Assembly (NCBI RefSeq): GCF_965283645.1
Contig: NZ_CBDIPG010000002.1
Location: forward strand, 124,113 to 188,112
Source of the DNA: Kordia sp.
Lineage (GTDB): Bacteria; Bacteroidota; Bacteroidia; Flavobacteriales; Flavobacteriaceae
Length of the DNA stretch: 64,000 bases
Reading direction: 5' to 3'
Shown here: piece by piece, positions 6,474-18,248 of the stretch
Position numbering within the stretch: position 1 is the stretch's first letter
Layout of the letters: the number at the start of each line of letters is the position of its first letter
Made by a program: the position numbers and the translations under genes
Notes under the pieces: model-generated
Databases searched by the model: none
What the model saw: only the letters and a program-made list of their open reading frames with translations
Told to the model about the DNA's origin: nothing

Positions 6474-6541
6474 GTTTCTACTAGTTATTTACTGTATAAA
6501 ATCACGTCATTACGAGAATTTGTTCGCTCTAATCACATAAT

Positions 6542-6569
6542 TGTCATTCCTGCGAAGATAGGATTCCAT
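6542..6569. repeat. Degenerate REP-like hairpin
   Basis: GTCATTCCTGCGAAGATAGGATTCC is an imperfect palindrome beginning with GTCA. Confidence 0.35.
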
Positions 6570-6617
6570 TTTACTAGTAATTCACGAATTACTTTGCTTG
6601 CATTACGGAAAACCGCA

Positions 6618-6648
6618 TTGTATATGTGTGCATTTTGTTTTACATTTA
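6618..6648 (+). promoter_or_regulatory. Candidate array promoter (Pc-like)
   Basis: TTG-N20-TACATTTA (one mismatch to TAnnTTTG), pointing into the cassette array. Confidence 0.4.
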
Positions 6649-6653
6649 GGGGA

Positions 6654-6742
6654 AATAACAGGAAGTTTCGATAAAAATACTTCCTGTTATTGACTAAATT
6701 TAGTATGAAAACGGGAATTCCTGTTATTCATACGTTAGCTGC
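6654..6742 (+). other. attI-like leader site of the cassette array
   Basis: TTCCTGTTATT at 6681 and 6718, inverted copy at 6654-6664, then GTTAGCT at 6734; no folded left arm, unlike the other sites. Confidence 0.5.
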
Positions 6743-6758
6743 AAGCTGAAAAAATCAA

Positions 6759-7046
6759 ATGGAACCTGAATTAAAAAAATACTTGCTCGAACAATGTCGA
6801 GATTGGATGCTTAAAGAAGAAATCAAAGTATTAAACAGATTAGGATTAACAGAACACGGAGAGACGGTTACACGAAAAAATGCTTTAGTTGAATATAAAA
6901 TGGAATTGTTTTATGGGTTTCAAGACAAAAAAGTAAATGATTTAGTTTCTTTAGAAAAAACTCTTGTGGAAGAAAGAATAGCAGAACGTATATTAAATGA
7001 TAACCCCGATATTCTGAATAATTGCTCAAATTGTGGAAAATTATGA
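6759..7046 (+). CDS. Cassette A hypothetical protein, ends in a lone CxxC
   Basis: 95 aa ORF 25 bp after the GTT site. Confidence 0.6.
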   Translation: MEPELKKYLLEQCRDWMLKEEIKVLNRLGLTEHGETVTRKNALVEYKMELFYGFQDKKVNDLVSLEKTLVEERIAERILNDNPDILNNCSNCGKL

Positions 7047-7447
7047 CTACAGAACCAAGAGGAAGATTATATCAAGATTCTGAATTTGAATTCAATGAGT
7101 TTAACGGATTAAAAATAGAAAAACTAATTGTCTGTGAAAATCCAGAGACTAAAGAGCCTATACTTATTTATATTAAAGTGGAAAATAGAAATTGGCATCA
7201 ATTCTTTTTGGACGCAGGAATAGGGTTTTGGGAAAACTGGGACGAAATTGACATTGAGGATGATTCTTATGATTTCATTGATTTTACTGACAAATTTGAT
7301 TTAAAAAACAAAGTTATTAATAGAATATTCTGTAAAAAAGATTTAAATAATAGCAGAATAATATTAGAACTGAAAAGCAACGAAAAGTTGATTTTAAAAT
7401 GCAAAGAGCCAAATATATTTGATTCTGATTGTGAATTAATAATGTAA
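7043..7447 (+). CDS. Cassette A second hypothetical protein
   Basis: ATG 7043 overlaps the upstream TGA (ATGA); acidic protein. Confidence 0.65.
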   Translation: MTTEPRGRLYQDSEFEFNEFNGLKIEKLIVCENPETKEPILIYIKVENRNWHQFFLDAGIGFWENWDEIDIEDDSYDFIDFTDKFDLKNKVINRIFCKKDLNNSRIILELKSNEKLILKCKEPNIFDSDCELIM

Positions 7448-7456
7448 AAAAGGCCA

Positions 7457-7655
7457 GCAGGTAACAAGGTATAAAAAACATAGGGCGCTTTAGGCTTATC
7501 CGAAAGATCTGTGTGTATTTGCAAAGTCACCGAATATAAAATTTGGCGTTTATGAGAAAAAAGATAAAAGCAAAATATTTATATTTGGCTTAGTACCAAC
7601 TCGAAACGTATCGCTTATTACCTGCCCTACGTTTCTTATACTAGCCGTTGTGCGT
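7457..7655 (+). repeat. attC-like site 1 (long class, about 200 bp)
   Basis: GGTAAC-AAG-GTATAA-N6-TAGGGC ... GCCCTA-N6-TTATAC-TAGCC-GTTGTGC. Confidence 0.8.
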
Positions 7656-7688
7656 CATTTAAGAACACTCGAATAAAAAAAGAAAATT

Positions 7689-7892
7689 ATGACAAATTAT
7701 ATTAACTGTGATAAACCTGAAAGTCCTTTCGGAAGAATTGAATGTAATAATTGCGGAGCGAAATATGATTTTGAATTTGACTCAATAAAAGCACCTTACA
7801 AAGAAACAGGAATTTTAAAATGTGCTTGTGGAGTTGACTTGGTAAGATGGAATAGTACGACTGAACCATATTTGGTAAGAGTTAATGAATAA
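7689..7892 (+). CDS. Cassette B small zinc-ribbon-like protein
   Basis: CNNC and CAC motifs; 67 aa; overlaps the next gene by 8 bp. Confidence 0.6.
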   Translation: MTNYINCDKPESPFGRIECNNCGAKYDFEFDSIKAPYKETGILKCACGVDLVRWNSTTEPYLVRVNE

Positions 7893-8277
7893 AACATACA
7901 AAATACATCTGAATGGAATTCTAATTGGGACTTCTGAATTAGAAAAAGCTGATGCACCAATGGGAGTTGCATTTGGACTGATTGTATTTAACCGAATTGA
8001 ATCGCCATACGAATTCTTTAAAGAATACTGTTTGAAAAACAATATTGTTATAAATACAGACGACCCAGAATTTGAATTTATCGACACTCAAGTGATATCT
8101 GGTTTAAAAGTATTTAGACAAGATGGACTGGAAATAAAAGGAGTTGCTGGAAATGCAATTACAGGAATGAAAAGAGATGGATATGAAATTTCAATTTTAG
8201 GAATCAATTATCCTTTTTACGAAGAAGAATTTCCACATCACGTAAAGGAATATGAAAATTTGTTCGGAAAAGAATAA
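7885..8277 (+). CDS. Cassette B hypothetical protein
   Basis: 130 aa ORF ending just before ACGCACAAC. Confidence 0.7.
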   Translation: MNKTYKIHLNGILIGTSELEKADAPMGVAFGLIVFNRIESPYEFFKEYCLKNNIVINTDDPEFEFIDTQVISGLKVFRQDGLEIKGVAGNAITGMKRDGYEISILGINYPFYEEEFPHHVKEYENLFGKE

Positions 8278-8283
8278 AAACGA

Positions 8284-8423
8284 ACGCACAACACCGTGTA
8301 TAATTAATTGCTTTGGTCGTTGCCTATTTGGAAAATTCCTTCGGAATTTTCTCGCGTTCGTTTTTGTTTACTAAATTAGTTGCTCAAACACGCAACTAAC
8401 CATACACATCAACGTTAGGCTTA
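8284..8423 (+). repeat. attC-like site 2 (medium class, about 140 bp)
   Basis: CACAAC-ACC-GTGTAT ... ATACAC-ATCAAC-GTTAGGC; internal hairpins GAAAATTCC/GGAATTTTC and TTAGTTGC/GCAACTAA. Confidence 0.85.
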
Positions 8424-8454
8424 ATTAGAAAAACCCGAGAGACCAATTCCATAA

Positions 8455-9024
8455 ATGAAAATATTCCTTAAAATTCTTGGACAAATAATAGCACTCGGAA
8501 TAGTAATCTTTTTAGGAATATTATTGACTTGGGAACAAATTCCTGGAAATAAAAATATTTGTGATGCTGGTCAAGGACTTTACGGATTAGCTTGGTTGAT
8601 TTTCATAATTATTTCAATCGCTTTGTTTATAAATTCTTGGATTTTTCTAAATAAAAATAATTGGAAAAAATACCGAATTACTGTTATGATAATCTGTGTA
8701 CTTATCGTTTTAATATCGTTAACTCTAAGGTCTGTGATTTTTCAAGTATCATATGGAAAAGAAAAACATAAAATTGAAAATACCGAAAATTACAATCAGT
8801 TAATTGAAGTAAAACTTTATGAAAATGGAAAATTCTATTCTTGGACTTATGATATGGGTTGTCAATTAGAAAATATCGGAACATATAAATTGAATGGAAA
8901 TAAAATAACATTGGAATTTGGAAATGAAAAATCTGAATATTTAGGAACAGAATATCTAATCGAAAATGATAAAGTTGTCTGTAATAAAGGTTGTGATTAC
9001 GAAAACGAATTGAAAATAGAATAA
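8455..9024 (+). CDS. Cassette C membrane protein (3 predicted TM plus soluble C-terminus)
   Basis: Three hydrophobic stretches in the N-terminal half. Confidence 0.75.
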   Translation: MKIFLKILGQIIALGIVIFLGILLTWEQIPGNKNICDAGQGLYGLAWLIFIIISIALFINSWIFLNKNNWKKYRITVMIICVLIVLISLTLRSVIFQVSYGKEKHKIENTENYNQLIEVKLYENGKFYSWTYDMGCQLENIGTYKLNGNKITLEFGNEKSEYLGTEYLIENDKVVCNKGCDYENELKIE

Positions 9025-9030
9025 AATAAC

Positions 9031-9170
9031 TAAGCCTAACACCGTGTATAATTAATTGCTTTGGTCGTTGCTTATTTGGAAAATTCCTTCGGAAGTTTCT
9101 TGCGTTCGTTTTTGTTTACTAAATTAGTTGCTTAAAGACGCAACTAACCATACACAATCACGTTAGGCAC
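9031..9170 (+). repeat. attC-like site 3 (medium class)
   Basis: Near-identical to site 2: GCCTAAC-ACC-GTGTAT ... ATACAC-AATCAC-GTTAGGC. Confidence 0.85.
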
Positions 9171-9206
9171 AAGCAAAAGAAACCAACATTAACCAACTAT
9201 ATTAGA

Positions 9207-9608
9207 ATGAGTTTAGTTCAAATTGACAAACAAAAACTAATCGATACAGGATTTACGGAATCTGGTGTAAAAAGGTATGAAAATACTATTACAGAATATT
9301 CCCAAATACTATTCGATAAGTCTAAAAAATTCGGAGAAGCGCGAAAGGCCAACGATTCTGCGGTAGAAATAAATTATGAAAATGTTCAAGGAGCTGTGAA
9401 GGTAATTTCTTCAACATTCGCAGATGAAAAAATACCGAAATGGAAATTATGGGCTCAATCTGGTGAATATCTGATAACCGCACTTTGTGGTTATTTAGGT
9501 TCTCAAGCGACACAAGATAATGCACCAAGTCACTTCACAATATTCTTTGTAATATCTGCAGTTGTCGGAGTAGGTTTGTTTATCGTTAGAAAAACTTCAA
9601 AAAACTAA
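9207..9608 (+). CDS. Cassette D protein 1: putative histone-fold domain plus 2 TM helices
   Basis: FTESGVKRY..EYSQILFDKSKKFGEARK..EINYENVQGA pattern; hydrophobic C-terminus. Confidence 0.6.
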   Translation: MSLVQIDKQKLIDTGFTESGVKRYENTITEYSQILFDKSKKFGEARKANDSAVEINYENVQGAVKVISSTFADEKIPKWKLWAQSGEYLITALCGYLGSQATQDNAPSHFTIFFVISAVVGVGLFIVRKTSKN

Positions 9609-9612
9609 AAAA

Positions 9613-10122
9613 ATGAAAAAGTCAATAAAATACACAGATTCGGCTTCAAAAAAACTTAATAGTGTTTTGGAGAAAGTCAAAGAACAAATTGCTGATGATA
9701 TCGTTAATTCTAAAAATTATCCTGGAGAAGAACTTATTGAAATAACAGCTTCAGATATTGAAGAAACTTATCGCAGATTAAGCATACGGAATAACAAGTC
9801 AACATTTTACAGAAAAAGTAAAATGATAAGAATGATAATTCCTGTTTATTTTATTTTGGGTATTATGCTAACACTTTTTGGCATTTTTAGAAAAGATATT
9901 ATGGAATTAATTAAAAATGACAAAGAGGGTCTTATGTATTCACTAACAGGTTTTGTGATATCTCTAACTTCTGCTGCTATATTTTATCTATACAAAAATA
10001 AAGAGAATGAAAGAAGACGTGAATATGAAAAAGAACGTAGAAATCTAAGTAAGTGGATATCTGAAATTGATTTAGAAAAATATGATACTGAATTTCTGAA
10101 AGATGAAAATGCCAGTGCCTAA
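9613..10122 (+). CDS. Cassette D protein 2: putative histone-fold domain plus 2 TM helices and charged tail
   Basis: YTDSASKKL..EITASDIEET pattern; stop codon lies inside GCCTAAC of site 4. Confidence 0.6.
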   Translation: MKKSIKYTDSASKKLNSVLEKVKEQIADDIVNSKNYPGEELIEITASDIEETYRRLSIRNNKSTFYRKSKMIRMIIPVYFILGIMLTLFGIFRKDIMELIKNDKEGLMYSLTGFVISLTSAAIFYLYKNKENERRREYEKERRNLSKWISEIDLEKYDTEFLKDENASA

Positions 10123-10318
10123 CATCGTATAAAAACAATAGGGCAATTGTAGCAAAACCGAATGGTTTGGGCGCATTTGCAAGGTCGCCAAATTTTTAAA
10201 TTTGGCTTATTGAGAAAGAAAAAATAATAAGAAAAATTTAAAAATTCAGCTTGTGGCTCAACCGAATAGATAGCGTGCAAATCTGCCCTACTGTTCTTAT
10301 ACACAACCGTTATATATA
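10115..10318 (+). repeat. attC-like site 4 (long class)
   Basis: GCCTAAC-ATC-GTATAA-N6-TAGGGC ... GCCCTA-N6-TTATAC-ACAACC-GTTATAT. Confidence 0.82.
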
Positions 10319-10703
10319 ATTCAAAAAAAGAATCGGAGACATCCGTTAGAAAAGAGATTTTGGAACGATTTTATGTAGTTTTTAAAATCAATAGGTTTTC
10401 ATTTAAGTTTTTGTCAGTTACACTGTGAAAGACAGTTCTTTCAAACATTGTTAATGTACTCAAAAACTTGATTTAAGGTAGTAGATTTATTTGACAAAAT
10501 CAACTCTTTATAAAAAACGATAAAATCTAACGTTGTAAATGCTAAAAAACAGCACACGCCTTATACAAATATAAAGCGCATCCTTTTTTTTATTTCAAAC
10601 GGATTTCAATGCTCATTTGGGCTCTTTTTTGAACTCCTGTTTTTTACTTGAATTTAAGTTGTATTTTAGTTCAATAAAGAACGCAAAAAAACATATATAT
10701 AAC
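10309..10703 (+). other. Cassette E: apparently non-coding cassette
   Basis: Bounded by GTTATATATA and TATATATAAC; no ORF of 60 aa or more in the track. Confidence 0.65.
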
Positions 10704-10751
10704 ATTGTGTAAACCTGCATTAAAACGCAGTTTACACTTAACGTTACCTGC
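10694..10751 (+). repeat. attC-like site 5 (short class, 58 bp)
   Basis: TATAAC-ATT-GTGTAAACCTGC-8 nt loop-GCAGTTTACAC-TTAAC-GTTACCT, with one unpaired C in the left arm. Confidence 0.8.
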
Positions 10752-10770
10752 AAGCTGAAAAAAATTGAGT

Positions 10771-11460
10771 ATGACAAAAAACATTACACTTCTGATTTTA
10801 ATATTTATTATTTCAAGTTGCTCTGCACAAGAAAATTTTAGAGATTATTATTATCAAATTGGAACAAAAAAGGAAATCAAAGTTTACAAATATGTTGACA
10901 AAAACAATCCAAGGAATATTGAATATTGGAAAGTTACTACAAACCCGAAAACAAATAAAATTCTAACCGAATCTTTCACAACTGATTTTAGACTTTACAA
11001 TATATTCGAGGAAGAGCTGAAAACAAATGGAGCGGAAATAATTCGTTATGCAGATTTTGAGGTTAATGACGAAAAACAGAATATACGGATTGACGGAACG
11101 ATTGTCGATAAAGATGTTTATAAATGGAATGACACAAACAAATATATTTATTCAGTCAAATACACGAGTCCAAAATATGGAAATGAACAATTCATAAAAG
11201 AACGAACTAAAAATAGCTTTGAAAAAATAACTATTAGCGGAACTGAATATTCAACATTAAAATTTAAGGATGAATACGAGATTAAATCACTCGAAAATGA
11301 CCAGAACTATGAATTTCATCAATTTACCTATTACGCAAAGGGAATTGGAATGGTAAAATACCAAAGGTATCATCCAGATGGAGCAACGATTGAATTAGAA
11401 TTAACCGAAATCCTAACTGAAAAAGAATTTGATGAACTGAAAGAAAAAGCCAGCAGGTAA
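10771..11460 (+). CDS. Cassette F lipoprotein
   Basis: Lipobox ISSC; stop codon inside GGTAAC of site 6; start at ATG 10771. Confidence 0.8.
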   Translation: MTKNITLLILIFIISSCSAQENFRDYYYQIGTKKEIKVYKYVDKNNPRNIEYWKVTTNPKTNKILTESFTTDFRLYNIFEEELKTNGAEIIRYADFEVNDEKQNIRIDGTIVDKDVYKWNDTNKYIYSVKYTSPKYGNEQFIKERTKNSFEKITISGTEYSTLKFKDEYEIKSLENDQNYEFHQFTYYAKGIGMVKYQRYHPDGATIELELTEILTEKEFDELKEKASR

Positions 11461-11589
11461 CACCGTATATAATTCATTGCTAGTTATAGCCAGTTTACGA
11501 AAGTCCTCGCGGACTTTATTTGTCCGTAATTTTTTATAAATTAGGTGCTTAAAACACGCAACAAACCATATACAACAACGTTGCCATTA
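11453..11589 (+). repeat. attC-like site 6 (medium class variant)
   Basis: GGTAAC-ACC-GTATAT-N6-TTGC ... GCAA-N6-ATATAC-AACAAC-GTTGCCA. Confidence 0.8.
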
Positions 11590-11599
11590 ATTAGAACCT

Positions 11600-12442
11600 A
11601 TGACCAGAAACATTCCGAAAAAGGTAAGAGAAGCTTTAAGAAAAGAAGTCAATTTTGGATGTCCAATTGATGGTTGTGGCAGTCCTTATTTGAGTTATCA
11701 TCATTTTGACCCACCTTGGCATATTGAAAATCATCATAGACCAGAGGGAATGATTGCATTATGCCTCGAACATCACAAGCAAGCCGATTATAATGCATTC
11801 ACAGATGACCAATTAAAAGAATTTAAAAAAAATCCGTTCCTATCTTCAGATGATTCAATACAAGGTCAAATAAATTGGAAAAGAGAGAATTTAGTTTTCT
11901 TAATTGGGGGAAATGTTTTCATTGGAGCTCAAAATATTTATCTCAATAAACAAGAACAATTGTTGTGGCTCACTACTGATGAACAAGGTAATTCACTTCT
12001 GAATTTAGATATGAAATCCGAAAAGGGAGAATTGATTTTTTCATTACGTGATAATGATTGGTTGGTTATGTCCAATTTTGATAATATTGAAAGTATTCCG
12101 AGCGGAAAAAAATTATTCTTCGAAAATAAAACAGAAGATTTAAAAATCGATATTGAATTTAATAACTATTCAAAAGTCGACTTTCAAAAGAAATATGCAG
12201 AAGATATTCCAGCGAGGTGGATAGAGATAATTACAAATAAAATTGTTGCTGAACCTATCACAGTCTGCGTAATCAATGGTCACTTAACTTATCCTTTTGA
12301 AATTAGAATGGAATCAACAGGCACTACAATAAACGGAGAAGGAAGCGAGATTACTGTAATGGGAAGTCTAACTCTAAAAAATGTCAAGGAACACATAATG
12401 CAAAGAGGATTAGTTGTCGGAAGTGGAGTACTGATAAAGTAA
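11600..12442 (+). CDS. Cassette G protein with N-terminal HNH-type nuclease domain
   Basis: RKEVNFGCPIDGC..YHHFDP..MIALCLEHH. Confidence 0.75.
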   Translation: MTRNIPKKVREALRKEVNFGCPIDGCGSPYLSYHHFDPPWHIENHHRPEGMIALCLEHHKQADYNAFTDDQLKEFKKNPFLSSDDSIQGQINWKRENLVFLIGGNVFIGAQNIYLNKQEQLLWLTTDEQGNSLLNLDMKSEKGELIFSLRDNDWLVMSNFDNIESIPSGKKLFFENKTEDLKIDIEFNNYSKVDFQKKYAEDIPARWIEIITNKIVAEPITVCVINGHLTYPFEIRMESTGTTINGEGSEITVMGSLTLKNVKEHIMQRGLVVGSGVLIK

Positions 12443-12443
12443 C

Positions 12444-12647
12444 TAATGGCAACAATGTATATAAAAAATAACGCAAGTCGTTGCTAAAACAAAGGCTTGG
12501 GCATTATTTGGAAGTCGCCAAATTTTTCAATTTGACAATTTCCTAAAAATAAAATAAATAGTAAAATTTAAAAATTCGGCTTGTGTATAATCTGAAAAGT
12601 ATCGCTTACAACTGCCCTACTTTTCTTATACGGAGACGTTGGCAGTA
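12444..12647 (+). repeat. attC-like site 7 (long class, mismatched left arm)
   Basis: GGCAAC-AAT-GTATAT ... GCCCTA-N6-TTATAC-GGAGAC-GTTGGCA; centre resembles site 4. Confidence 0.75.
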
Positions 12648-12655
12648 ATACCGAA

Positions 12656-13744
12656 ATGAACATAGAATTAGAAAACCTACAATCGACTATAAAAAGGAAG
12701 TACAGTTTTAAATATAAACCTGAATTTTCTGAATCTTTCAAGACAGATATAAAAGACAACCAAATAATCCCATTAACTATTGAAGTTTTTGAAAAATTAG
12801 AATGGCCAATTGTCTTTAGAGACAATAAGTCAGTTGAAGCTAAAAGGAAAGGCGACTGGAATAAACTGACCGAAAAAATAACAATTACCAAAAAGGCTTC
12901 TGGTCGAATTGAGGTTCATAGTAAAACAATTGAAGGTAATTTCATTGATTTCGGAAAAAACTCTAAAAGAACTGGTTTATTCATTATTCTTTTTCAAAAG
13001 TTAGCTAAAGAATACCAAGAAAGCGGAAAACTCTCTGAATTAGAAACGGAGTTTGAAAAAGAAAACAGTTGGGCAGATTATGAAATTCCTTCAGAATTAC
13101 CAAAACCAAAAGAATTTGGAAAACCAAATTTAGTTCTTTCAATAATTGGAGGTCTTATTATCGCAATTCTGTTTGGAATATTAATTGCGTTTTTAACTAC
13201 AAAATTTACCTATTTCATTGGAATCTATGAATTCGCAATTGGAATCGGTATTGGATACTTCTTTGGTCAAGTTTTAAAGAAAACTAATTACATTGAGTTT
13301 AGATCAATTCAATTTATCATTGGAGGAATCGTGATTGTAATGTTTATAACGAATCTATTCACACAATATCAATTAATAATCGCAGAGAATAACATTTCAG
13401 AACTTAGCTTTTTTGAATTTATGAAACTGCGTTTTGAAGGCGGGTTAACAATAAAGGATTTAAATACAGGTTGGATTGGACTTACTTTAAGTTGGGTTTT
13501 TCAAATGGTTTTCCCTTACTTTTTAGCTGTCGGTAAAGTTGCAGGAATTACAGCAAATTATATTATTGAAAAAATTCCTGAAAAAGTACTTGAATATACA
13601 ATTTATCTTTTCGAAATGGAAAAGTCAGAAAGTGAAGTTAGAGCTGAATTAGCACAAAAAGGATGGAATAAAAAGTCTGACCAAGATAATGTTTTTAAAG
13701 CTATTGTCGAGATAAGTGGATTTCATCAAATGAACAGAGAATAA
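12656..13744 (+). CDS. Cassette H membrane protein (soluble N-terminus, about 4 TM)
   Basis: 362 aa with Gly-rich hydrophobic helices in the C-terminal half. Confidence 0.78.
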   Translation: MNIELENLQSTIKRKYSFKYKPEFSESFKTDIKDNQIIPLTIEVFEKLEWPIVFRDNKSVEAKRKGDWNKLTEKITITKKASGRIEVHSKTIEGNFIDFGKNSKRTGLFIILFQKLAKEYQESGKLSELETEFEKENSWADYEIPSELPKPKEFGKPNLVLSIIGGLIIAILFGILIAFLTTKFTYFIGIYEFAIGIGIGYFFGQVLKKTNYIEFRSIQFIIGGIVIVMFITNLFTQYQLIIAENNISELSFFEFMKLRFEGGLTIKDLNTGWIGLTLSWVFQMVFPYFLAVGKVAGITANYIIEKIPEKVLEYTIYLFEMEKSESEVRAELAQKGWNKKSDQDNVFKAIVEISGFHQMNRE

Positions 13745-13750
13745 AAGTAC

Positions 13751-13880
13751 TACTTGGCAACACCGTAAATAATTAATTGCTATTTATAATATACTTATGA
13801 AAACCCTCGCAGATTCTCTATTCATTTTTATTCGCCAAATTATATTCTTAAACAAATAATACACAAAACCATTACCAATA
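13751..13880 (+). repeat. Eroded attC-like site 8 (medium class)
   Basis: GGCAAC-ACC-GTAAATAATTAATTGC left arm aligns to sites 2, 3 and 6; right end reads ATTACC instead of GTT. Confidence 0.55.
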
Positions 13881-13886
13881 ATTAAG

Positions 13887-14282
13887 ATGAAGAAAATAAT
13901 TTTCATATTAACTTTGATATGCATATCTACTATTGGATTCAGTCAAACAGATTCAATTAAAGGAAACCAATTTGAACTAACGGGAAAGATTATCAATGAA
14001 ATTTCTTTAACTCCTCATTGTGGAAATTTTGCTTTCGGAACGGTCGTTGAATTTGAAATTATCGAATTTTCTGACTCCAATTATAAAGGTAGTTCTATAG
14101 GTGTGATTTTTACTTGTCCTGAATTCTATAAAAGTGGATTTTTTGAGATTGGAAAGACTTATACAATTACCATTGCTGATGAAAATCAAGCAGACTTCAG
14201 TTGGATTATTCCTAATGAATATATATTGAATAAATACAAGTTGGACAAAAAACTGTGGGTCATTGAAGCGAATAAGAAATAA
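13887..14282 (+). CDS. Cassette I-like secreted hypothetical protein
   Basis: Signal peptide MKKIIFILTLICISTIGFSQ. Confidence 0.75.
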   Translation: MKKIIFILTLICISTIGFSQTDSIKGNQFELTGKIINEISLTPHCGNFAFGTVVEFEIIEFSDSNYKGSSIGVIFTCPEFYKSGFFEIGKTYTITIADENQADFSWIIPNEYILNKYKLDKKLWVIEANKK

Positions 14283-14412
14283 TAAAATATGAAATCATAG
14301 TTCACTACGGCTGTTATGTTATATATACTAAACGTTACAAATTCCAAATACACAAAACCAAGCACATTCAAGATTTCCCAAATGTGCTCAACTTAAAATA
14401 TAGTAGTGTTTT

Positions 14413-17400
14413 CTAAACAACAACTTCCTCAGAAGTTTTCGATGTCAACTTTGTGAACTCTTGATTATCTTTCTGAAAATCTACCAATCGTGCAAAAAAC
14501 CAAATAAAGGCTTCTACTTGTCCGTTTAGCACAAATCTTCCACTAGAAATATGATCCAATACAGCTTGTATATCTAACGTTTGTAACGCAGTAAATGCTT
14601 CTTGATGTTGAATCCATACAGCACAAGAAGGCAAATCTGTGATGACTTCTGTATTTTGTGCTATATTTCCATCTTGTATAACAATTGTAATTGGCGTACT
14701 CTTTTCAGAAATACGCATGGAAATCGCAAGATTCGGTGTTGGGCGCGTAATTTGTGTCAACCAACGCTGCAAATACGAAGCAAACGTAGTTACCCAATAT
14801 TGAAGTGCTTCCCGCGTTACATTCACTTTTTCCTGCTTTTGTTCTTCAATAAGCATTTGCGCATCTATTTCGCGTTCAGCTTCAATAAGTGCTTCCAGCG
14901 TTTTATCAATATCTTTTCGCGTATGCGCTGCCGAACAAATAAATCGTAAACGTCCACGCCCAATTTCAACAATTGGATAGGTTACCGCCAAGGTTTGAAC
15001 GCCACGTTTGTACAAACTTTGCACAATAGCATACAATTTATCTTTATCGCCAAAATGTGGTGTGATAATTGGTCCGTCACCTGTGCCTAAATCATAGCCA
15101 GCTTCTTCAAATCGTCGGCGCATGTATCGTGTTCTGTCCCATAATTGTTCGCGTAGTTTTTCATCAGCGCGAAGCATTCTCAATGAAGTCAACGCTGCAG
15201 CAATATCTGCCGGACTGATAGACGCCTGAAATATATACGCTCTTGAGGATGCTTTTAACAAACCTATATGTTCACGACTCGCGGCAATAATTCCACCGAT
15301 ACTTCCCAACGCTTTGCTCAGTGTTGTCATTAAGAAATCTACATCTGCGGTTGCACCTTGTTCGGCACAAATTCCAGCTCCATTTTTTCCATAAAAACCA
15401 AAAGAATGTGCTTCATCTACAAACGTAAGTGCATTGTATTTTTTTGCCATACGCACAACTTCTGCTACAGGCGCAGTTCCTTCTCCCATACTATACACAC
15501 TTTCCAACACTACCAAAACTGTGCGATACGGAGAAACTTCTGTCTGTAACACTGCTTCTAAATCGTTTGCATCATTGTGTTTAAATGTTCGTATTTCGGC
15601 ACCGCTCAAACGCGCGCCATCTACTATGGAAGCATGACACAATTGATCGATAATGACAACATCATTTTTTCCAAGAATTCCAGAAATGGCACCTACATTT
15701 GCCGTGTAACCTGTGGGAAACAAGCAAGCATCTTCTTTTCCGACCAAATCAGCAAACTCTCTTTCAAAAGCTACATGCTGATTCGTCATTCCAGATGCCG
15801 ATGCAGAAATCCCCATTCCTGTACCAAATTTTTCCAAAGCGGCTGTCGCTTCTTTGATCACGTTGGCATCTCTATTTAAACCAAAATACAAGTTCGTAGA
15901 CCAAATAATTGCTTCCTGTTCTTCATCATTAAATGCATCACCAACTACACCTGTGGCGGCACTTCCAGTTCGTAATACTTTCCCGTAAGGATTTCTACGA
16001 TTGTCATTTACCATACGCAACACTTCCTGCACAAGCTTGCTTTTATCATCCGCGCTCCAAGCTGTTGCGTTTGCCGCTTGAAACGTTGGAAAACTCGCTT
16101 GAATATCAAATTGAAATTTCGCCAGCGTATCACTCATCACCTTGCACGGTTGATGTGTAGGTTGTGCTTCCACTCCATTGGTTGTTATGTTGGCAATATA
16201 AGTTGCCAAAGCATTTGCTGTTGGATATTCAAAAACCGTTGGCGCTGTGATCTTTTTTCCTAACGATTTTGAAAGTCTACTGCTAAATTCCAACGTAGTT
16301 AACGAATCGAGTCCGAATGCATCAAACGGTTGATTGGGTAAGATTTCTTTTGGATCGTTTATATTAAGAATCGTAGCAATTCCGCTTTGAATAGTAGCTA
16401 AAATGGCTTCTTTTAAGGAGTTATTTGAATTTTTAAAGCTTTCCAGCAGATTTTCCTCAGTAGTTTGTTTTGTCGATGGAGTTTGTGACAAACGCATGAG
16501 TTGCTTTCGATCAAGCTTATCATTTGGTAACAATGGCAATTCATCTAAATAATTAACAACTTGCGGCACCATATATTTTGGCAATCGTTCCGAAATGTAT
16601 GATTTGATGTTTTCCGTTGTAATTGATGCATCTTTCTTTACAACGTATACAACCAACATTTGTTGACCAATGCCGCCTTCAACAGCCGCAGCCGCTACAG
16701 CATCAATGCCATTCATTGATTCAAGTGTAGATTCAATTTCTTCGAGTTCAATTCGGAAACCTCTAATTTTCACTTGTTGATCAACTCTTCCCAGAAATTC
16801 AATTTCCCCATTTTCTGTCCAACGGCATAAATCGCCTGTTTTATACAATCTGTTATCTGGAATAGCTTCCGAAGGTGTAATTTCAATAAAACGTTCCTTT
16901 GTTTTTACTTCATCATATAAATAACCACGCGCCAATTTCGTTCCCGCAAGGTGTAATTCTCCAGCATCTCCATTAGATACAGGTTGTAAATTATCATTTA
17001 AAATATACGCTCGTGAGTTTGGAACTGACTTTCCAATTGTAATAACTTTTGCATCACGAGCAACTTCTGAAATCGTTGAATATACGGTATCTTCAGTAGG
17101 TCCGTATGCGTTTAAGACTCTTTCAACTGAATCATGTGCATACACTTGCTGCACCAATGAACGCTTTAGAGCTTCTCCTCCAAAAACAACACACTTTATA
17201 TTTTCAGGTAATATTTCTGTTGCCAATAATGCTTGTACTGACGACGGAACCATTACAAATGTTCGTACTTCATCTAACGCTGGAATTTTAGTCAATTCTA
17301 AAGCATTTTTTACTAATATTATTTTTCCACCAAGTGATAATGTTCCCATGATTTCCATCACAGACGTATCAAAACAAACAGATGCTGCAGCAAGCATTCC

Positions 17401-17985
17401 GTTCAATTCTTCATCACTAAATATTTCGCGTACGGAAGCACGCATTTCCACTATATTTTTATGCTCAACCGCTACACCTTTTGGTTTTCCTGTAGAACCT
17501 GAGGTATAAATTACATATGCCAATTCATTTTTAGATGCATGTATTTTTTCGTCTGAATGATTTCCGAGTTTGTCAATCCACAATACATTTTCAACTTCAT
17601 TACACAAATCCGCAGTAGCTTTTGTATCAACAATTGCAGCTTTCGATTTCGAATTTGTCAACATATATTTAATACGATCTTTCGGATATGCAGGATCTAA
17701 CGGAACATACGCGCAACCTGCTTGCATTACGCCTAGTAATGTTGCTACTAATTCCCAAGAACGATTCATACAAACACCAACTAATGATCTGGCTGTTACA
17801 CCACGATTTTTGAGTTCTCCAGCTACTTCATTGGCTTTTTTCATCAACCGTTGATACTCAATATTGAGTTCTCCGTCAATGATTGCTATTCGTTCTGGAT
17901 GTGCCAGCATTTGTTTTTTGATCAATCCACAAATTGTTATTTCTGGATTGTCTTCAATCTGTTGCATTAATGTATCCATTTTCAT
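14413..17985 (-). CDS. Standalone NRPS-like enzyme: adenylation - ACP - PLP-dependent alpha-oxoamine synthase - SCP2-like C-terminus
   Basis: YTSGSTGKPKG, NAYGPTE, YKTGDL and KIRGFRIEL (A domain); FGLDSL (ACP); DQLCHASIVDG, VDEAHS and TLSKALG (AOS); SGRFVLNGQ (SCP2-like). Confidence 0.88.
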   Translation of the reverse strand: MKMDTLMQQIEDNPEITICGLIKKQMLAHPERIAIIDGELNIEYQRLMKKANEVAGELKNRGVTARSLVGVCMNRSWELVATLLGVMQAGCAYVPLDPAYPKDRIKYMLTNSKSKAAIVDTKATADLCNEVENVLWIDKLGNHSDEKIHASKNELAYVIYTSGSTGKPKGVAVEHKNIVEMRASVREIFSDEELNGMLAAASVCFDTSVMEIMGTLSLGGKIILVKNALELTKIPALDEVRTFVMVPSSVQALLATEILPENIKCVVFGGEALKRSLVQQVYAHDSVERVLNAYGPTEDTVYSTISEVARDAKVITIGKSVPNSRAYILNDNLQPVSNGDAGELHLAGTKLARGYLYDEVKTKERFIEITPSEAIPDNRLYKTGDLCRWTENGEIEFLGRVDQQVKIRGFRIELEEIESTLESMNGIDAVAAAAVEGGIGQQMLVVYVVKKDASITTENIKSYISERLPKYMVPQVVNYLDELPLLPNDKLDRKQLMRLSQTPSTKQTTEENLLESFKNSNNSLKEAILATIQSGIATILNINDPKEILPNQPFDAFGLDSLTTLEFSSRLSKSLGKKITAPTVFEYPTANALATYIANITTNGVEAQPTHQPCKVMSDTLAKFQFDIQASFPTFQAANATAWSADDKSKLVQEVLRMVNDNRRNPYGKVLRTGSAATGVVGDAFNDEEQEAIIWSTNLYFGLNRDANVIKEATAALEKFGTGMGISASASGMTNQHVAFEREFADLVGKEDACLFPTGYTANVGAISGILGKNDVVIIDQLCHASIVDGARLSGAEIRTFKHNDANDLEAVLQTEVSPYRTVLVVLESVYSMGEGTAPVAEVVRMAKKYNALTFVDEAHSFGFYGKNGAGICAEQGATADVDFLMTTLSKALGSIGGIIAASREHIGLLKASSRAYIFQASISPADIAAALTSLRMLRADEKLREQLWDRTRYMRRRFEEAGYDLGTGDGPIITPHFGDKDKLYAIVQSLYKRGVQTLAVTYPIVEIGRGRLRFICSAAHTRKDIDKTLEALIEAEREIDAQMLIEEQKQEKVNVTREALQYWVTTFASYLQRWLTQITRPTPNLAISMRISEKSTPITIVIQDGNIAQNTEVITDLPSCAVWIQHQEAFTALQTLDIQAVLDHISSGRFVLNGQVEAFIWFFARLVDFQKDNQEFTKLTSKTSEEVVV

Positions 17986-18248
17986 TTTTCTTTTAGTAGT
18001 TATTAATTAAGTTAATTTCTTAAAAGTCAAATGGATTAGGGAAGTCCAATACTAGTTAGTTATTCACTAAATAATCATTGTAATTTTGAAAATATTAATT
18101 TCGATAGTGCGAATACAGTTATTATATCGATTGTGAATAAAGCTATGATTTAATTACTCAAATTCAAAATAAACGGTGGAATTTTTGAATCGTATAAAAG
18201 TTTATGAATGCTAGAAAGTTAGTAGGGATTCAGTTATAAGTTAATTTT

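Follow-up and report, generated by a model that had tools for sequence, protein, structure and literature searches.

The 64,000-nucleotide window analysed here (positions 124,113 to 188,112 of contig NZ_CBDIPG010000002.1, Kordia sp. assembly GCF_965283645.1) carries on its minus strand a single gene for a four-domain synthetase. The protein combines an adenylation (A) domain of the type found in nonribosomal peptide synthetases (NRPSs), a carrier (T) domain, an alpha-oxoamine synthase (AOS) domain dependent on pyridoxal phosphate (PLP), and a C-terminal domain predicted to have the sterol carrier protein 2 (SCP2) fold. According to the open reading frame (ORF) list and its translation, the gene is an uninterrupted ORF of 1190 codons located exactly at 14413-17985 (-), stop codon included, and the protein is already on record as an identical entry (P0002). 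The gene is real, intact and well conserved.

The A domain covers residues 24-497 (16495-17916, minus strand), with Pfam matches to AMP-binding (PF00501, residues 24-356, E 5e-71) and AMP-binding_C (PF13193, residues 416-490). It is followed by the carrier domain at residues 532-597 (16195-16392, minus strand; PP-binding, PF00550, E 3.7e-13) and by the AOS domain, which together with conserved N-terminal helices spans residues 612-1044 (14854-16152, minus strand; Aminotran_1_2, PF00155, residues 693-1033, E 5e-45). The SCP2-fold domain, located by structure prediction and Foldseek, lies at residues ~1055-1170 (14476-14823, minus strand). A domain scan with Pfam and NCBIfam showed no condensation (C) domain in the 1190-aa protein. 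The same four domains in the same order, and the lack of a C domain, had been proposed in a preliminary description made from the DNA letters, and all of these hold.

The adenylation domain and its substrate

The A domain passed the NCBIfam model TIGR01733 (“amino acid adenylation domain”) with 381.6 bits against a cutoff of 317.4 over residues 44-431, and it remained below half of the cutoffs of the NCBIfam fatty-acid and aryl-acid ligase models. The specificity code was counted in GrsA numbering from the anchors FD(235)xS, xPxx, GG(E/S)A and NAYGPTE, giving DTMMVGAVYK (D206, T207, M210, M245, V267, G269, A293, V301, Y302 and K490), which is identical to the approximate code derived in the preliminary description. 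The code is nearly fixed in the family, as most of the 76 relatives compared read D-[TPVA]-M-M-V-G-[AV]-V-[YF]-K, with D206 (corresponding to Asp235 of GrsA) and K490 (Lys517, motif A10) invariant in a set of 26 relatives as well as in all 76. Asp235 pairs with the alpha-amine of the substrate in A domains specific for amino acids. Its invariance, along with the score for TIGR01733, favours an alpha-amino acid as the substrate of this domain, so that of the two options offered at first, an aminoacyl-derived or an acyl-derived product, the former is preferred; the product itself is a matter of proposal and is considered below.

The remaining eight pocket residues (T/M/M/V/G/A/V/Y) are uncharged, and small at positions 301 and 322 (GrsA numbering), a pattern that would suit long or bulky side chains. 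We infer that the substrate is a large hydrophobic amino acid (Leu/Ile/Met/Phe/Tyr class), with no closer assignment. The nearest published codes, which we take to be those of the Leu, Ile and Tyr types, agree at just ~5-6 of 10 positions, and for this reason the assignment is restricted to “large hydrophobic”. The code DTMMVGAVYK was not found in the literature searched by code, nor in the text of the PARAS supplement. Glycine specificity, suggested by a PDB match to LgrA of 484 bits, was rejected, since this score is the sum of two A domains (233 and 252 bits).

Carrier, AOS and SCP2-fold domains as a probable release cassette

The carrier bears the motif FGLDSL, an ACP-like (acyl carrier protein) form, with the phosphopantetheine attachment site at Ser561 (codon 16303-16305). 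This motif and the PF00550 match agree with the carrier in the style of a polyketide synthase (PKS) with a GLDSL motif that had been noticed from the sequence alone. Residues G558, D560, S561 and L562 are invariant, Ser561 being found in 76 out of 76 relatives. Four matches to PF01648, the family of phosphopantetheinyl transferases (PPTases), occur elsewhere in the genome.

In the AOS domain, the key residues are Lys891 (codon 15313-15315), expected to form the Schiff base with PLP, together with the stacking His784, Asp857, the second histidine His860, Arg1014 and Ser727. His784, Asp857, His860 and Lys891 are present in all 76 relatives and Arg1014 is likewise invariant, the AOS part being the most conserved of the protein with a column majority above 90% across relatives. 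The preliminary description had made its proposal depend on a functional PLP lysine and carrier serine, and both Lys891 and Ser561 are invariant. Its suggestion of an alpha-aminoketone product gains support at the sequence level from the conservation of the whole catalytic set.

The AOS part scored below the NCBIfam equivalog cutoffs for serine palmitoyltransferase (SPT; 320 bits vs 500), BioF (319.8 vs 426), 2-amino-3-ketobutyrate coenzyme A (CoA) ligase (KBL; 315.6 vs 460), 5-aminolevulinate synthase (ALAS; 266.9 vs 338.6) and the CqsA type (198.8 vs 428). The best PDB match was SPT (3a2b, 232 bits), followed by ALAS, ThAOS and KBL. Arg1014 aligned with the carboxylate-binding Arg390 of SPT and, being invariant, speaks for a free amino acid as the PLP-bound substrate. 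A further indication on the nature of this amino acid comes from a structure-guided study (PMC11906848) in which the residue preceding the loop Arg in ThAOS lies 3.5 A from the substrate C-alpha; the position is occupied by Val in the Gly-specific KBL, Thr in ALAS, Ser in SPT and the 8-amino-7-oxononanoate synthase (AONS) of E. coli, and Leu in the Glu-using Alb29. In the window protein the corresponding residue is the invariant Ser727, matching the Ser of SPT in a phmmer alignment to the S. paucimobilis enzyme. This suggests a preference for small L-amino acids that have a side chain (Ala/Ser type) over strict use of glycine.

The C-terminal domain gave no Pfam match in residues 1045-1190 even at E<=10, and thus does not belong to the Pfam SCP2 family as defined by sequence. 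Its structure was predicted with AlphaFold2 on an alignment of 49 C-termini (from the window and related loci), giving a model with a predicted local distance difference test (pLDDT) score of 88 and a predicted template modelling (pTM) score of 0.79, in which a helix is followed by four strands, two helices, a strand and a long helix. In a Foldseek comparison with the PDB, UbiJ-SCP2 (6h6o) ranked first (E 3e-5, probability 1.0, template modelling score 0.5-0.6), then came mosquito, human and rabbit SCP2, the SCP2-like domain of MFE-2 and the SCP2-like C-termini of alkylsulfatases, and the 38 top PDB matches were all SCP2 or SCP2-like. The model therefore indicates a genuine SCP2 fold in a protein that is not a Pfam member at the sequence level, which bears out the ~110-aa SCP2-like pattern first noticed at this C-terminus. 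The domain is moderately conserved, with W1064, P1084, L1086, C1121, L1143, G1155, E1158, F1160 and W1162 invariant.

A profile of this SCP2 subtype, searched against 1.84 billion representative proteins, gave 27 matches only. Pfam analysis of eight of these found an AOS domain directly N-terminal of the SCP2 domain in five and no domain at all in three, the rest of the 27 being short pieces. One of the five AOS-fused matches, P0137, is an N-terminally cut PKS protein of 1667 residues with the order acyltransferase (AT), dehydratase (DH), ketoreductase (KR), ACP, AOS and SCP2. Over the whole of its ACP-AOS-SCP2 part it is 40% identical to the window protein, and the two have in common the unusual GTGMGTS loop, the YPxVE...GRxRFIC motif and the invariant Cys and Glu of the SCP2 domain. 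P0137 thus represents an uncharacterised PKS line ending in the same release cassette. Since the SCP2 subtype is fused to AOS and also occurs in this PKS protein, the carrier, AOS and SCP2 domains can be considered to evolve as one chain-release cassette, whose upstream partner can be an NRPS A domain or a reducing PKS module. That the three domains behave as a unit also favours the in-cis carrier as the source of the electrophile used by the AOS. An AlphaFold2 model of the AOS and SCP2 domains together (pLDDT 85, pTM 0.78) is compatible with a fixed arrangement of the two.

By analogy with thiolase-SCP2 proteins and UbiJ, the SCP2 domain would most likely provide the release cassette with a hydrophobic pocket or lid, and the invariant Cys1121 and Glu1158 may leave room for a more active role.

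Genomic context and distribution of the gene

The gene is flanked by pcm upstream, by genes for a DJ-1/PfpI protein and a Gfo/Idh/MocA oxidoreductase, by small ORFs without a family match and then by the gene for SmpB, so that the flanks are housekeeping or unassigned, in keeping with the earlier remark that no tailoring or transport genes lie adjacent. Conserved partner genes were looked for by calling ORFs in all 80 loci, comparing these all against all and clustering them. No neighbouring protein family occurred in more than 6 of 76 loci, these cases being within-genus synteny, and conserved partners were rejected, as nothing beyond such synteny was seen across the 80 loci. With no conserved neighbour and with four PPTase matches elsewhere in the genome, the gene should be a one-gene system requiring just a PPTase and common metabolites.

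Upstream of the gene, an AT-rich intergenic region of 263 bp (17986-18248, minus strand) separates it from pcm and presumably holds its own promoter; one weak sigma-70-like match was found at 18104-18077, in a scan that does not cover Bacteroidota promoters. Downstream, a hairpin of 18 pairs with a U-rich tail (14355-14394, minus strand) lies 19 nt past the stop codon and folds with -18.7 kcal/mol (z = -2.9); it is terminator-like by pattern scan and RNA folding, as a consensus match only, and is located at the edge of a neighbouring cassette array. This array occupies window positions 6474-14412, where ~7.9 kb of small unrelated ORFs, integron-like in appearance, lie between smpB and the synthetase gene.

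The order of the locus was compared between the window and L014, L026, L055, L046, L001 and L005. Four Kordia-clade relatives (three Kordia and one Bacteroidota metagenome-assembled genome, MAG) share the order pcm, synthetase gene, none or one ORF, and smpB, while K. jejudonensis and another Kordia have different variable small ORFs between the synthetase gene and smpB. This suggests that the smpB-side junction is an insertion hot spot of which the synthetase marks the fixed boundary. The G+C content of the gene (~38%) exceeds that of its flanks (~30-32%); recent transfer was not accepted on base composition, as other conserved genes of the window reach 36-37%.

In the genome from which the window comes (G000), two extensive regions of multimodular NRPS genes, rich in A domains and with ORFs of up to 3074 aa, are located on contig C1 at ~617-680 kb and 4.50-4.78 Mb, and one PPTase match (C1:608870-609136) adjoins the first of these. 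A stand-alone homologue of the AOS domain (33% identity) lies at C1:3352028-3353098; its match is interrupted by a single in-frame TAA, and it may be a broken gene or two genes.

A word-indexed search gave more than 100 full-length relatives of 1160-1370 residues and 60-83% identity. In Bacteroidota these come from Kordia, Aquimarina, Tenacibaculum, Dokdonia, Fulvivirga, Microscilla and Xanthovirga, and outside this phylum from Microbulbifer and Pleionea (Gammaproteobacteria) and Sulfidibacter (Acidobacteriota). With one genome taken per species, 276 loci in as many species genomes from at least five phyla were found at 53-83% identity to the window protein, adding Pseudoalteromonas luteoviolacea, Lysobacteraceae, Chitinophaga japonensis, an Archangiaceae MAG, Gemmatimonadota and Acanthopleuribacter. 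The nearest relative of the window protein is that of K. jejudonensis (83%), and 15 of the 18 other Kordia species examined carry an intact copy of the gene. None of 200 other Flavobacteriaceae genera, represented by one genome each, matched at E<=1e-120; given that species of Aquimarina, Tenacibaculum and Dokdonia carry the gene, this reflects patchiness and not absence from the family.

In a FastTree phylogeny of 75 full-length proteins, phyla were intermixed with high local support. Wenzhouxiangella (Gammaproteobacteria) grouped with Fulvivirga, Chitinophaga japonensis fell within Sinomicrobium, sequences from Archangiaceae, Gemmatimonadota and Thermoanaerobaculia within a clade of Lysobacteraceae, and a single Cellvibrionaceae sequence within Aquimarina. 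Some of the rows are MAGs, for which single cases may be binning errors, and the isolate genomes give the same pattern. Our reading of this tree is that the gene was repeatedly transferred horizontally and then retained for long periods. The Kordia sequences themselves are split into two clades, the minority clade being found at another locus; its copies (L003:7746-11513 and L021:7872-11480) have no adjoining pcm or smpB and group beside Aquimarina and Dokdonia, which suggests a second, independent acquisition within the genus.

Proposed reaction, alternatives and significance

From the domains, catalytic residues, SCP2 fold, autonomy and distribution described above, we infer both substrates, the product and the part played by the SCP2 domain as follows. 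With somewhat better than even confidence, the protein is considered to be a self-contained single-polypeptide synthetase that joins a hydrophobic amino acid to a free small L-amino acid to give an alpha,alpha'-diaminoketone. One of the PPTases of the genome would prime Ser561 of the carrier, and the A domain would adenylate a large hydrophobic alpha-amino acid and load it as a thioester onto this residue of its own carrier. A second, free and small L-amino acid, Ala- or Ser-like in preference to strict glycine, would then form the external aldimine at the PLP of Lys891, and deprotonation of this amino acid by the PLP domain would allow a Claisen-type attack on the carrier thioester. Decarboxylation would follow, with release of an alpha-aminoketone that retains the amine of the first amino acid and would hence be an alpha,alpha'-diaminoketone. 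The SCP2 domain would serve as an integral accessory of the carrier-AOS release cassette, most likely forming a hydrophobic pocket or lid that receives either the product or the group carried on the thioester.

Several points weigh against this proposal. The role of the SCP2 domain is its weakest point. A polar diaminoketone has no obvious need of a domain resembling a lipid carrier, and a lipophilic acyl group would be a better match for both the SCP2 fold and the GLDSL motif of the ACP type. The specificity code is not known to agree with any textbook code beyond the ~5-6 of 10 positions given above, and in the AOS domain the loop Arg conserved in most AOS enzymes is replaced by Ala728. In addition, the reactivity of free alpha,alpha'-diaminoketones may lead to cyclisation or dimerisation, and what accumulates may then be a heterocycle derived from the released product.

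Some of these points are better accommodated by a lipid-type product, which is unlikely but is the alternative that survives best. Here the carrier would hold a lipophilic group, either an unusual long-chain amino acid or an aminoacyl group N-acylated in trans, the chain would be held by the SCP2 domain, and a sphingoid-like amino-lipid base or head group would result. Apart from the ACP-type GLDSL motif, this is favoured by the structures nearest to the SCP2 fold, namely UbiJ and fatty-acid-binding SCP2 proteins, by the finding that the ACP-AOS-SCP2 cassette also ends a reducing PKS module, whose chain is lipophilic, and by the deep, Met-lined pocket of the A domain. Against it, the 76 loci have no conserved neighbouring gene for an acyltransferase, a starter C domain or fatty-acid metabolism, and the polar invariants Cys1121 and Glu1158, being common to the PKS variant, point to a role at the level of the cassette and not to one specific to the chain.

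More distant from the diaminoketone synthetase is a fused fatty-acid loader and SPT, in which the A domain would activate a fatty acid and serine would be converted to a base resembling 3-keto-sphinganine. SPT is indeed the best match of the AOS part in both the PDB and NCBIfam, Ser727 is shared with SPT and the C-terminus has an SCP2 fold; moreover, an adenylating enzyme with a dedicated carrier and an AOS has a precedent in AasR/AcpR/Spt of Rhodobacteria (PMC9386255). This reading is nevertheless improbable, since the A domain passed TIGR01733 and stayed at 140-200 bits in the long-chain fatty-acid ligase models of NCBIfam (cutoffs 476-650), the amine-pairing Asp235 is invariant, and every SPT equivalog model failed, with 254-320 bits against cutoffs of 500-670.

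Marginally less probable again is a reversal of roles, in which PLP would activate the carrier-bound amino acid as the nucleophile and the SCP2 domain would hold an acyl-CoA or acyl-ACP as the electrophile. The SCP2 domain would then have a function of its own, as SCP2 domains beside thiolases present acyl-CoA, but the invariant carboxylate-binding Arg1014 fits a free amino acid at the PLP, the carrier of the PKS relative P0137 can deliver an electrophile only, and we know of no precedent.

The diaminoketone synthetase can further be placed among known systems. No characterised enzyme with the A-T-AOS-SCP2 architecture was found in the literature searched by architecture, by AOS plus SCP2 and by code, in keeping with the preliminary description, which had not recognised the arrangement. 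In SxtA (saxitoxin) and in PigH/HapH and RedL (prodiginines), the AOS domain condenses the thioester on the carrier with an amino acid, with decarboxylation, and so releases it. As in the window protein, the carrier of these enzymes is directly N-terminal of the AOS in one polypeptide, and the Lys/His/Asp/His/Arg set is held in common with this type, a likeness drawn from architecture and general knowledge and not from sequence comparison. The window protein differs in that its carrier is loaded by an NRPS-type A domain, where theirs are loaded by PKS or GNAT (GCN5-related N-acetyltransferase) domains, in having no partner genes and in the SCP2-fold domain after the AOS. A PKS- or acyl-loaded carrier of the SxtA/PigH/RedL type is thus absent from the window protein, while P0137 does have the upstream AT-DH-KR.

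The stand-alone enzymes SPT, BioF/AONS, KBL, ALAS and ThAOS share ~33-38% identity with the AOS domain, along with the fold family and the catalytic residues, and the window AOS resembles SPT and AONS in the Ser at the selectivity position (V79 in ThAOS). It differs from all of them in failing every equivalog cutoff, in Ala728 for the loop Arg and in its acyl donor, which would be the in-cis carrier where theirs is CoA. SCPx (thiolase-SCP2), MFE-2 and UbiJ/UbiT have in common with the window protein the SCP2 fold and its C-terminal position on an enzyme acting on thioesters, whereas the SCP2 domain of the window protein has no Pfam SCP2 match and its Cys1121 and Glu1158 have no known counterpart there.

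In the AasR/AcpR/Spt system of Caulobacter and other Rhodobacteria (PMC9386255), a loader that uses ATP likewise forms a functional unit with an AOS and a carrier dedicated to it, but these are three separate proteins and the loader, of the acyl-CoA-synthetase type, is for fatty acids. The window protein is a single chain, has an A domain of the amino-acid type and carries an SCP2 domain in addition. A member of the family has been catalogued before, as the survey by Milano et al. in 2013 (PMC3870968) listed Microscilla marina A1ZVW4 as “A-CP-PLP2 (AOS)” with no substrate, cluster type or product assigned. The M. marina homologue P0072, 66% identical to the window protein, has the A-CP-PLP architecture of A1ZVW4 and, judging by organism and architecture, is probably the same protein; A1ZVW4 was only catalogued in the survey, and its SCP2 domain went unrecognised. 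Taken together, these comparisons suggest that the enzyme is a case of thiotemplated AOS release with an unrecognised accessory domain.

A broader reading can be put forward tentatively, in which the gene is a single-gene, horizontally traded synthase of a new class of small molecules, the AOS-fused SCP2 domain being an unrecognised catalytic or product-handling element of thiotemplated release. The product would then be a diffusible signal, a bioactive compound (e.g. a heterocycle derived from a diaminoketone) or an amino-lipid base, made by surface-associated, algicidal and predatory bacteria of marine and soil environments. The carriers of the gene include algicidal Kordia, Aquimarina and Microbulbifer associated with sponges and corals, and the fish-associated Tenacibaculum, besides Pseudoalteromonas luteoviolacea and Lysobacteraceae.

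The significance of the enzyme is limited in that its proposed mechanism extrapolates known chemistry. AOS enzymes are sought as biocatalysts for the formation of C-C bonds, and a self-loading AOS independent of acyl-CoA would be useful in this respect. The pairing of AOS with SCP2, which recurs after the PKS domains of P0137, suggests that PLP-dependent chain release has an accessory domain not described so far. Should the chemistry proposed here be true, one gene and a PPTase would turn two common amino acids into an amino-ketone scaffold, which makes for a very compact biosynthetic unit. Given the wide spread of the family among such carriers, its product could matter ecologically, as a signal or a bioactive compound, and yet have been overlooked, since one-gene “NRPS-like” regions are usually ignored.

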